From Candidatus Heimdallarchaeota archaeon (GTDB lineage Archaea > Asgardarchaeota > Heimdallarchaeia > JABLTI01), in NCBI GenBank assembly GCA_030614005.1, contig JAUWKS010000017.1:26214-58213 (forward strand): 32,000 bases of DNA, written 5' to 3'. The position numbers and the translations under genes were made by a program. Numbering within the stretch: the first letter of the stretch is position 1; the number at the start of each line of letters is the position of its first letter. Shown here in pieces: positions 3,681 through 23,563 of this stretch. A model generated the notes under the pieces. The model was not told the DNA's origin, did no database searches, and saw only the letters and a list, made by a program, of their open reading frames with translations.

Positions 3681-4348
3681 TTTTTGGCCCCCATCCTGAT
3701 GATGCCGAACTTGGTGCAGGTGGAGCAATAGCAAAAGCTGTTGCAGAAGGATTGAAAGTAGGCATTATTGATCTAACTGCTGGTGAAATGGGTACACTCG
3801 GTACTAAGGAAATTCGTTTGAAAGAAGCAGAAAGTGCTTCAAAAATACTTGGTGTGAAATTCAGAGAAAATCTAGGATTACCAGATGGATATATTGGTTT
3901 AGATATTTCACAAGAAGACATTTTTGCAGTAGCAAAGAAAATTCGTCAATATCAACCTAAAATTGTCTTAGCACCATATTGGGATGACAGGCACCCAGAT
4001 CATGCTGCTAGTTCGGAGATAATCACTAAAGCAGCTCATTATGCAAAATTGAAAAAATTTAATCTTGAACATCCGCAACATAAAATTCAACAACTTATCT
4101 ATTATGAATTAAATGGTCAATTTACTCCATCATATATTATAGATGTAAGCGACTTTTTTGAACAAAAAAAAGAAGCAATAATGAGTCATAAATCTCAATT
4201 TAAAGAGTTTTCAAAAGAATATCTTCCTTTTCCTTTAGTTGAAAGATGTGCCTATTATGGGTCATTAATTAATGCCTCTTATGGTGAGGCCTTTATGGTA
4301 AAAGGCTCGTTAAAAGTTGATAAATGGGAAGTCATTATAAATAAATGA
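3665..4348 (+). CDS. bshB1: N-acetylglucosaminyl-malate deacetylase BshB1 (PIG-L family)
   Basis: The likely start is ATG 3665 (MLDVLVFGPHPDDAELGAGG), overlapping the bshC stop. Zn-binding HPDD and HPDH motifs, DLTAGEMGT.GT...R..EA, and C-terminal YGEAF. Confidence 0.9.
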   Translation: MLDVLVFGPHPDDAELGAGGAIAKAVAEGLKVGIIDLTAGEMGTLGTKEIRLKEAESASKILGVKFRENLGLPDGYIGLDISQEDIFAVAKKIRQYQPKIVLAPYWDDRHPDHAASSEIITKAAHYAKLKKFNLEHPQHKIQQLIYYELNGQFTPSYIIDVSDFFEQKKEAIMSHKSQFKEFSKEYLPFPLVERCAYYGSLINASYGEAFMVKGSLKVDKWEVIINK

Positions 4349-21579: not shown

Positions 21580-22263
21580 TCATTTTTCTGCAATTATGAA
21601 TAAATTGTGCAATGACTTTTTACTGGAAACGATTCTTAAATTTGCGTTTAGAATTAAATCTTCTAATTCTTGTTTCTCGAATAGATAGTAATATCTCATT
21701 ATTTTTGTTTTGTCAGGCATTGTCCATGGAACAAGAACGTCCTTTTCTCCTTGATCAATGATTTCCTTCAAATCTTCCTTTTCAAATCTAGGATGAGTTC
21801 TTAACCAGCAACTTACGAGCACACGTCCCTTACTTTGCATTATTCGAACAACTTCTTGAAGAGCTTGTTTTCTTTTCTCTTGACTATCCAAATGGTGAAA
21901 AACAGCTATCATTACAATGCGATTAAAAGATTCATCCTTAAAAGGTAAAGAATCAATATCAGCATTAATTACACCTGATAGAAGTTCTGTTACAGAAGAG
22001 AGCTCATTTTTTAATGCTGTTTTCAAAATGTTAAAGGAGATATCCATGCCAATAGTGTCTATTCCTTTTTCCAAAAATATTCTTGAATGACGTCCATTTC
22101 CACAACCTAAATCTAACGCTAGATTGTTTGTGTCTATTGTATCAATAAACTCCGTAACATCCCCCCACGGTGCTTTTCTTTTAGTATCAAAACTTACAGC
22201 AATCTGATCATACACTTTTGAGATGGGTTGATATTCTTTTGATTTTTCTTCGGGAGGAGTCAT
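21580..22263 (-). CDS. trm9: Trm9/ALKBH8-like class I SAM methyltransferase (tRNA U34 carboxymethyl methyltransferase-like)
   Basis: VYDQIAVSFD.KR.APW, LDLGCGNGRH, IAVFHHL, DVLVPW and RYYYLF...ELE parallel Trm9/ALKBH8 motifs. The start is uncertain (22263, 22272 or 22293). Confidence 0.65.
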   Translation of the reverse strand: MTPPEEKSKEYQPISKVYDQIAVSFDTKRKAPWGDVTEFIDTIDTNNLALDLGCGNGRHSRIFLEKGIDTIGMDISFNILKTALKNELSSVTELLSGVINADIDSLPFKDESFNRIVMIAVFHHLDSQEKRKQALQEVVRIMQSKGRVLVSCWLRTHPRFEKEDLKEIIDQGEKDVLVPWTMPDKTKIMRYYYLFEKQELEDLILNANLRIVSSKKSLHNLFIIAEK

Positions 22264-22376
22264 TTGTAACATGAAAACCTTAGCAATGTTCATTTTAAAT
22301 TATTTGTTGTTAAAAGGGTGTAAATTACATTTGATATAAAACAATATACTTAAGTTACTTTTTCCATAGTCTTACT

Positions 22377-22446
22377 TGGCAATGATGTGACGTACGGTCT
22401 CGCTAGTCTGTGCTGACAATGATCGAAATCTGGGGTAACTGAGCCA
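22377..22446 (+). ncRNA. Box C/D methylation-guide sRNA (dual guide)
   Basis: Terminal stem TGGC(22377-80)/GCCA(22443-46); C box ATGATGT(22382-88); D' CTGA(22413-16); C' ATGATCG(22419-25); D CTGA(22439-42). It is a GC-richer island in an AT-rich intergenic region, and both guides are complementary to recalled conserved 23S rRNA sequence. Confidence 0.8.
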
Positions 22447-22543
22447 TTATTACATTTTGAGAACAATCAAATAACAGTAGAAAAAATAATAACCTAACTT
22501 TACTAATTAATTTTTAATCTAAAATACGAAGAGCTGATTATCA

Positions 22544-23563
22544 TTGGCAAAACCTTTCAAAGTAATTCAAGTCGGATTTGGACCCATGGGTCAATTAGTA
22601 ACAAAATTGCTTTTAAAACGAAAAAATATCGAACTAGTTGGAATTATTGATATAGCCAAAGAATTTCAAGAAAAGAAAATTAGTGAATTTTTGGGTGCAG
22701 ATATAGACTCTGATCTTAATGTCACTTCTGATCTTGAACGGGTTCTAACTAAGGATATTGATGTGGTGATTATTGCTACCTCATCGTTCTTTGAAAAAAT
22801 TGCTCCAATGATACTTGAAATTGTAGGCGTTGGAGTAAATGTTATTTCACTTTGTGAACAATTGGCTTATCCTTTTGACTTTCATCCTGAACTTTCGAAA
22901 AAAGTCAATACTGCTGCTAAGAAACAAAATGCAACCGTTGTTGGTACTGGTATTAACCCCGGTTACTTAATGGAGCTTTTACCTATTATGTTAACTGCAC
23001 CTTGTGAGGTAGTAGAAAAAATAACTATTACACGAATGATGAATTCAAGTAAGAGAAGAATACCATTCCAAGTGAAAATAGGTACCGGATTAAATGAAGA
23101 AAAATTCGAGAAAAAAATGTCCGAAAAGAAAATCACATGCCATGTTGGTCTTGAAGAATCTATGCAAATGATTAATGCTGCTTTGGGTCTTGAACTTGAT
23201 GAATTCATTGAATTACCTCCTAAAGCAATGATCGCTGAAAAACCATTTGTTTATGATAATATTGAAGTTCCAAAGGGACATGTTTGTGGTTTACATAGTC
23301 AAGGCATAGCCAAAAAAGACGGGAAAGAAATTTTGAAGCTTGATTTCATTGCTTATTCAGGTGATCACGAAGAATTTGATAGTATTGAAATCATTGGAAT
23401 ACCAAACATTAAGCAAATAATCAAAGGCGGAGTTCATGGTGATGTTGGAACGGCTTCAATGGTTGTCAATTTAATCCCCAAAGTAGTAAAAGCAAGGAGT
23501 GGATTACTTACAATGATAGATTTACCTGTTCCTTGTAACACTGCAAATATTTGGAAAGAATAA
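22544..23563 (+). CDS. NAD(P)-dependent dehydrogenase, 2,4-diaminopentanoate dehydrogenase (Ord)/DapB-related family
   Basis: Rossmann VIQVGFGPMG, GVNVISLCEQL, GTGINPG, HVGLEES, GGVHGDVGT. Confidence 0.7.
   Translation: MAKPFKVIQVGFGPMGQLVTKLLLKRKNIELVGIIDIAKEFQEKKISEFLGADIDSDLNVTSDLERVLTKDIDVVIIATSSFFEKIAPMILEIVGVGVNVISLCEQLAYPFDFHPELSKKVNTAAKKQNATVVGTGINPGYLMELLPIMLTAPCEVVEKITITRMMNSSKRRIPFQVKIGTGLNEEKFEKKMSEKKITCHVGLEESMQMINAALGLELDEFIELPPKAMIAEKPFVYDNIEVPKGHVCGLHSQGIAKKDGKEILKLDFIAYSGDHEEFDSIEIIGIPNIKQIIKGGVHGDVGTASMVVNLIPKVVKARSGLLTMIDLPVPCNTANIWKE

Follow-up and report, generated by a model that had tools for sequence, protein, structure and literature searches.

A candidate gene for a box C/D sRNA conserved in a Heimdallarchaeial family, with two predicted guide sites in domain V of 23S rRNA

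Does the 250-nt spacer separating two genes of a Heimdall archaeon contain a guide RNA gene and, if so, which ribosomal nucleotides would its guides select? The question is raised by a 70-nt block (22377-22446, plus strand) of the window, by which we mean the whole stretch of 32,000 nt analysed here (Candidatus Heimdallarchaeota archaeon, contig JAUWKS010000017.1, positions 26,214 to 58,213 of the forward strand). The initial annotation described this block as a dual-guide box C/D sRNA, with guides predicted to direct 2'-O-methylation to positions equivalent to E. coli 2441 and 2454 of 23S rRNA, on either side of A2451. The analysis reported below supports a dual-guide box C/D sRNA in this Asgard (Heimdall) archaeon, keeps the first of the two sites and replaces the second.

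The terminal stem UGGC/GCCA, the C box AUGAUGU, the D box CUGA and the C'-like box (A)UGAUCG were all found exactly as originally described, as was the D guide stretch UCUGGGGUAA (22429-38). All features of the locus are collected in Table 1. Box C matches RUGAUGA at six of seven positions. In the predicted terminal k-turn, a textbook C/D k-turn, the 4-bp stem is accompanied by a 3-nt AAU bulge, which includes A22381, and by the pairs G22384.A22442, A22385.G22441, U22386.U22440 and G22387-C22439. The two spacers (22389-22401 and 22426-38) are 13 nt each in the window and 12-13 nt in relatives, a symmetry typical of archaeal C/D sRNAs. Save for a degenerate C'/D' motif, the predicted architecture is that of an archaeal dual-guide C/D sRNA.

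Table 1. Predicted features of the sRNA locus, in window coordinates.
Feature	Position	Strand	Remark
Methyltransf_11 gene, divergent	21580-22293	minus	Left neighbour of the sRNA spacer
TATA/BRE-like, putative promoter motif: CAATATACTTAAGTTACTTTT here, CAATAAAYTTAATTGATTTT in relatives	22342-22362	+	About 15-35 nt before the RNA 5' end
Terminal stem, 5' half, UGGC	22377-22380	+	Pairs with 22443-46; the same in all 11 distinct sequences
Box C, AUGAUGU	22382-22388	+	Read from the sequence; invariant in all homologues
D' guide, GACGUACGGUCUC	22389-22401	+	From the homologue alignment
D'-like box, GCUA	22402-22405	+	Invariant; provides 4n (G), 3n (C), 2n (U) and 1n (A) on the non-bulged strand of the putative internal k-turn
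Internal hairpin, GUC / loop / GAC	22406-22417	+	C-stem of the putative internal k-turn; from the homologue alignment
C'-like box, AUGAUCG (AUGAGCU in relatives)	22419-22425	+	AUGA kept; A22418-U22420 form the 3-nt bulge
D guide, AAAUCUGGGGUAA	22426-22438	+	Pairs with own 23S 2544-2553
Box D, CUGA	22439-22442	+	Invariant in 11 distinct homologues
Terminal stem, 3' half, GCCA	22443-22446	+	Pairs with UGGC; invariant
T-rich tail, TTATTACATTTTG	22447-22459	+	T-runs trail the element in all homologues
2,4-diaminopentanoate dehydrogenase-like gene	22544-23563	plus	Right neighbour of the sRNA spacer

The TATA-like motif was the sole feature shared by the upstream flanks of 10 homologues. We infer a promoter role from its location, which is the usual one for an archaeal promoter, and the T-rich tail likely acts as an archaeal oligo-T terminator. 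With such a motif upstream and T-runs downstream, the element has the look of an independent archaeal transcription unit and would be transcribed as such. The DNA datasets that carry the sRNA sequence are marine-sediment and cold-seep metagenomes; no RNA dataset was listed either for the locus or for the sRNA.

Could box-like motifs have arisen by chance in this AT-rich spacer, without any gene? A naive box scan of the genome returned 29 candidates versus 8 in a reversed-genome control, mostly within coding sequence; the scan was uninformative, and boxes alone are therefore weak evidence. An Rfam search of the element gave no match at gathering thresholds and only noise at E values up to 10, and the single-strand fold of the element was not better than that of shuffles (z = +0.9). 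Both absences would suit a chance origin. However, the C/D families of Rfam are lineage-specific, so that the miss says nothing on class membership, and a lack of fold signal is expected for a protein-scaffolded guide RNA.

Conservation argues strongly against a chance origin. A blastn search of 40 related genomes detected the sRNA in eight of the genus's ten other members and in the only sister-genus genome. In the more distant of these genomes the matches covered query positions 28-97, i.e. exactly 22377-22446. Identity ranged from 84 to 96% overall and from 84 to 88% in the more distant genomes, while the surrounding spacer could not be aligned. The same pair of genes flanked the element in every case, with protein identities for these genes of only 49-65% in distant relatives. 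In the two genus genomes without a match, the locus was absent from the assembly or broken by a contig end; within one Heimdallarchaeial family, the sRNA is thus present wherever the locus is assembled. The bounds of the conserved block coincide with those originally proposed, which places the element far beyond chance. With a block so sharply bounded and shared by two genera and several metagenomes, there is almost no room left for the reading as chance motifs, and we consider it very probable that 22377-22446 is a real box C/D sRNA gene.

A covariance model built from seven homologues was run on 82 genomes of the class. It gave ten matches, the window's own copy and nine relatives, all in the window's own family, and none in the 70 genomes of the class's other six families. 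A metagenome scan in which the guide was left unspecified added seven further copies on contigs, including four new variants, and a 19-mer scan of species genomes returned only the same representatives together with chance bacterial matches. The homologue alignment comprises 11 distinct sequences. One contig (L062, DATKZI010000037.1) bears an sRNA identical to that of G009, a genome of the window's genus, under a record titled Candidatus Bathyarchaeia; this title is probably a mislabel.

Orthologues were found and compared for compensatory changes, but no pair of the proposed structure covaries: all pairs are invariant, and the covariation count is uninformative. Support for the structure therefore comes from conservation and from a coordinated change in arm length, described below. 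As regards conservation of the boxes in relatives, boxes C and D and the terminal stem are invariant; the D' box CTGA (22413-16), on which the original layout was built, is not conserved.

That layout placed the D' box at CUGA 22413-16 and C' at UGAUCGA, as a K-loop, and used the guide 22403-11 on ACAG(A/G)CUAG with methylation of G2454. It has one attraction: in this genome alone, CUGA stands 3 nt ahead of the C'-like box, the canonical archaeal K-loop spacing. Yet the nearest variants (G010, G001 and L090) have CAGA instead of CUGA, and in the rest the box is absent, its position falling within a hairpin arm or loop. T22414, a substitution in the hairpin arm that is private to this genome among the 11 variants, weakens the stem and accidentally makes CTGA. 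The layout would also require a D' spacer of 24 nt against a D spacer of 12-13 nt. The segment 22403-11 itself belongs to the conserved hairpin, the conserved D' guide being 22389-22401, and its best rRNA match is no better than those of shuffles (p ~0.8). Lastly, the genome's own 23S differs from the sequence used for the prediction, so that the segment forms only five contiguous pairs with ACAGAGUCG (A2451-A2455), followed by G.G and U.C mismatches. We regard this layout, and with it G2454 as a target, as highly improbable.

What is conserved in its place is an internal motif composed of GCUA, a hairpin, a 3-nt bulge ending in U, and then GA(U)C(G) or GAGC. The hairpin stem has 3 bp in the window (GUC/GAC), 4 bp in G010 (GUCU/AGAC) and 5 bp in most relatives (GUCUU/AAGAC), both arms varying in length together. 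Pairing of GCUA with 22421-24 gives 1b.1n G.A, 2b.2n A-U, 3b.3n U.C (G-C in relatives) and 4b.4n C-G. In the C'-like box, the GA dinucleotide and the U at bulge position L3 are invariant, while in the D'-like box GCUA just the closing A of the consensus GA is retained, and the third position has U, not the consensus G. This arrangement suggests a k-turn variant that may serve as a putative second L7Ae site. An A-U pair at position 2b.2n has a precedent in Kt-23 of the Thermus thermophilus 16S rRNA, which folds normally (Schroeder & Lilley 2009, PMC2790904).

The guides were compared with the 23S rRNA of the window's own genome (contig 95, 25794-29052). Around the peptidyl-transferase nucleotide A2451 it reads UUACCCCGGGGGUAACAGAGUCGUCG, not the archaeal sequence used in the initial annotation. 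With own 23S 2544-2553 (UUACCCCGGG), the D guide forms seven Watson-Crick pairs, then G.U, G-C and G.U, a duplex to be read with the caveat that it includes one or two G.U pairs. Its fifth nucleotide faces the second C of the H74 strand UUACCCCGG(G), own nt 2548, which is E. coli 2441; pairing with the own 23S thus agrees with the proposal that this guide, by the +5 rule, selects 2441. Tested against shuffled guides, the best rRNA match of the D guide had an ungapped p of ~0.05 (0.12 for the commonest guide variant) and a duplex-energy p of 0.01-0.04. Positions 2-9, the core CUGGGGUA, are identical throughout the genus and correspond exactly to the paired positions. Variation occurs at positions 1 and 10-13; at position 10 the variants have U, A or C, and the C of variant L074 would add a G-C pair. 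Since guides in the same register occur in three published sRNAs, this part of the earlier proposal is supported and has precedents. We conclude that the D guide probably directs 2'-O-methylation at E. coli 2441.

Boxes, hairpin and D' guide persist in the sister-genus ortholog (G011, L011:1504-1572, +), but its D guide is wholly different (AAACCUAUGAACA). This looks like a guide replacement. The complement of AAACCUAUGAACA resembles what we take to be the GUUCAUA stretch of E. coli H89. If the sister-genus 23S matches a UGUUCAUAGG-like H89 stretch, the two genera would illustrate guide switching within domain V.

No part of the sRNA is more strongly conserved than the D' spacer (22389-22401), which, as just noted, is kept even where the D guide has been replaced. 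Counted from the D' box, its positions 2-8 and 10-12 are invariant among the 11 distinct sequences, and positions 1, 9 and 13 vary. Positions 2-8 (ACGGUCU), directly before the D'-like box, pair perfectly with AGACCGU of the own 23S (2763-2769), and positions 10-12 pair with CGU (2770-2772) if U22393, at position 9, bulges. The nucleotide opposite the fifth position is own nt 2766, the first C of GACC, which is E. coli 2590 at the base of H93. For the D' guide of relatives, the bulged duplex at 2590 is the minimum-energy duplex over LSU plus SSU. Precisely the three variable positions lack a Watson-Crick partner in this model, a coincidence with a chance of 1 in 286 that was noticed post hoc. 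By energy or pair score the D' match is no better than those of shuffled guides (p ~0.8-0.9). The duplex is short, with seven contiguous Watson-Crick pairs, or ten with a guide bulge, and a bulged guide nucleotide within a C/D guide duplex is non-standard. Two independent observations, the pattern of variable positions and the published guides in the same register, favour 2590 despite the weak score, and methylation at 2590 is the outcome that we consider somewhat more probable for the D' guide than all others together. Both predicted positions (2441 and 2590) lie in domain V around the peptidyl-transferase ring, in keeping with the initial annotation, which had its own pair of sites bracket the peptidyl-transferase centre.

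The main rival target for the D' guide is the 23S A-loop (H92), where CGUACGGUCU would pair with GGGUUGUACG (own 23S 2724-2733) and select 2551, beside U2552. An ungapped run of ten pairs speaks for it, as does the A-loop's status as a methylation hot spot in five of seven archaea studied, U2552 being a known hot spot of archaeal guides (PMC4644070); moreover, the four genomes with both the sRNA and an assembled 23S all read UGUAC, fitting guide nucleotide U22393. On the other hand, four of the ten pairs are G.U, including the +5 pair, the score is no better than for shuffles, and the +5 nucleotide is 2551, not U2552. G012 has UGUAC yet gave no sRNA match, and the U-to-C change at guide position 9 in L074 and L092 would break the pairing. 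We judge the A-loop quite unlikely to be the target.

Other searches brought no competitor to the sites at 2441 and 2590. In the 90%-complete assembly, a genome-wide search with the D' core found no convincing site, and its four one-mismatch matches look random. A site in domain I (own 23S nt 474) was rejected for the D' guide: its 8-mer match borrows a nucleotide of the D' box. For the D guide, a perfect 13-nt complement in the genome is at C63:2233-2245 (+), antisense to an ORF; it lies off the mRNA strand, about 0.14 such matches are expected by chance, and it was discarded as a target. The ORF on the opposite strand is, judged by eye, TruA-type pseudouridine synthase-like. Nothing convincing was found among the 24 tRNAs called by aragorn. 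Aragorn also called a putative tRNA-Pyl(CUA) in this genome (contig C71:90626-90718). No 16S rRNA gene was found in the assembly, in which the 23S gene stands alone on contig 95, and the 16S was therefore tested with same-genus sequences only; these gave no good match. In G009, too, 16S and 23S are on different contigs.

The comparison of 23S sequences revealed several peculiarities of the group, whose 23S genes are 3.3-4.3 kb long. In H89, an insertion of about 65 nt lies between GAGAGCUCACA and UCGACC (own 23S nt ~2582-2647, L001 ~4082-4147) and is also present in G010; the own-23S pairs A2455-U2496 and G2456-C2495 of this helix are compensatorily changed relative to E. coli. The 23S of G005 (L035) is interrupted after GGGGGUAA (A2451) and that of G012 (L034) after GGGGUAAC (C2452), breaks that look like rRNA introns at the catalytic centre. 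The A-loop reads UUGUAC where CUGUUC is usual (E. coli 2551-2556), with U2555 changed to A (own 23S nt 2724-2736, L001 ~4224-4236). UUGUAC also occurs in G005, G009, G010 and G012, and the U is kept in G007, G016 and G015; the crenarchaeal sequences given in PMC4644070 have C at position 2555.

A genuine C/D-type k-turn RNA might also play another role, as an orphan guide (of a tRNA or some other RNA), a pure rRNA-folding chaperone or an L7Ae-binding regulatory leader of the dehydrogenase-like gene. Taken alone, the D' match is statistically weak, and the same gene always follows the element on its strand, at a distance of about 100 nt; binding of L7Ae to mRNA k-turns has been reported (PMC5539422). 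Against a leader, T-runs stand between the element and the 2,4-diaminopentanoate dehydrogenase-like gene. Against another role in general, both guides match, in register, published guides for recurrent 23S sites, and no better target was found in the genome, the 24 aragorn tRNAs or the same-genus 16S sequences. Some such role keeps a minor share of the probability, perhaps the largest among the alternatives weighed here.

Our preferred reading is that of an independently transcribed C/D sRNA which, in an RNP with L7Ae, Nop5 and fibrillarin, guides modification at 2441 and 2590; as a whole, we give it a probability of about 0.6. L7Ae would bind both the terminal C/D k-turn and the non-standard internal k-turn, in which GCUA and a hairpin of 3-5 bp are followed by the AAU bulge and then by the C'-like GAUCG or GAGC. 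Nop5 and fibrillarin would then bridge the two k-turns across the two 13-nt spacers. On the H74 strand, the D guide (22426-38) would place own 23S nt 2548 (E. coli 2441) for 2'-O-methylation, and on AGACCGU (plus CGU with 22393 bulged) the D' guide (22389-22401) would do so for own nt 2766 (E. coli 2590). The sequences themselves show the anatomy, the conservation, the complementarity and the protein genes; that the sRNA is transcribed, joins an RNP and directs both methylations is what this scheme predicts. Genes for the three proteins are present in the window's genome: an intact fibrillarin ORF (PF01269, 309 bits), an adjoining Nop5 gene (PF01798, 196 bits) and an L7Ae gene (PF01248, 97.5 bits).

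The two sites, about 150 nt apart in E. coli numbering, are both in domain V and flank the ring, so that either a double-guide or a chaperone reading is conceivable. As a chaperone, the sRNA would grip the H74 strand and the base of H93 simultaneously, as some eukaryotic snoRNAs act, and would help to close the peptidyl-transferase ring during assembly by means of its non-standard k-turn and bulged duplex. That this would be its main function seems unlikely to us.

With this sRNA, the Heimdall group of Asgard archaea gains a C/D guide RNA that is well delimited and backed by sequence comparison; our literature search found no catalogue of such RNAs for this group. It also suggests that the predicted 23S sites 2441 and 2590 recur in the lineage closest to eukaryotes. 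The sRNA, previously unannotated, represents an ordinary addition to a known class of RNA. Its use lies in annotation and in future RiboMeth-seq, and it leaves views on C/D RNPs or on the origin of snoRNAs unchanged.

Among known systems, a eukaryotic counterpart can be named for one of the two sites. By our own tentative alignment with yeast, we take E. coli 2590 to be C2959 of the 25S rRNA, the first C of UUUAGACCGU. Yeast Cm2959 is guided by snR73 (bioRxiv 10.64898/2026.03.20.713187). On this presumed alignment, snR73 of Saccharomyces cerevisiae modifies the nucleotide equated with 2590; unlike the Heimdall sRNA, this eukaryotic snoRNA forms a long guide duplex. For the internal motif, the resemblance to Kt-23 of Thermus thermophilus lies in the A-U pair at 2b.2n (PMC2790904); Kt-23 is a ribosomal k-turn, not a C'/D' motif, and binding of L7Ae to the internal motif of the sRNA is a prediction.

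The nearest parallels are among the archaeal C/D box sRNAs identified by RNA-seq, with predicted targets, by Dennis et al. 2015 (PMC4644070, Additional file 1); the same-register matches described here were found post hoc, and the targets given there have in turn only been predicted. Sulfolobus acidocaldarius sR128, Methanopyrus kandleri sR16 and Ignicoccus hospitalis sR425 have alignment position C2715 as predicted target, which we mapped to E. coli 2441 by counting in the alignment block of PMC4644070. In these three (Sac-sR128, MKAsR16 and IHOsR425) the D guide ends in (C/U)GGGGUA(A/C/G) right before box D, in the register of the Heimdall sRNA, and Sac-sR128 also shares the C box variant AUGAUGU. 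They differ from it in that their D' guides aim elsewhere (G2697, C2698 and C2772), their C'/D' motifs are nearer the consensus, and their spacers and loops are different. As the H74 target is invariant, the shared guide may be convergent rather than a sign of overall sequence homology.

For 2590, the published guides with this predicted target (C2864, PMC4644070) are Pyrobaculum calidifontis sR30, Ignicoccus hospitalis sR27 and sR124, and Thermoproteus tenax sR52. PCAsR30 (ACGGUCUG before D' GCGA) and IHOsR27 (ACGGUCUC before CUGA) carry ACGGUCU at positions 2-8, in the same register as the Heimdall sRNA. The partner D guide of sR30 and sR52 is directed to C2880 (E. coli 2606) in the opposite strand of H93, whereas the partner guide of the Heimdall sRNA addresses H74. 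The latter further departs from the Pyrobaculum sR30 group by its hairpin between D' and C' and by U, in place of G, as the third nucleotide of D'. Published Methanopyrus sRNAs do include some with such an internal hairpin (PMC4644070). Both sites have already been predicted as targets in Crenarchaeota and Methanopyrus, and the special relevance to snoRNA origins suggested at first does not follow, targets and architecture being closely paralleled in the crenarchaeal and Methanopyrus sRNAs (PMC4644070). PCAsR30 comes closest in detail: it has the GC-initial D' box GCGA and the C' box AUGACCG, close to GCUA and AUGAUCG of the Heimdall sRNA, and its duplex at 2590 is likewise only about 8 bp.
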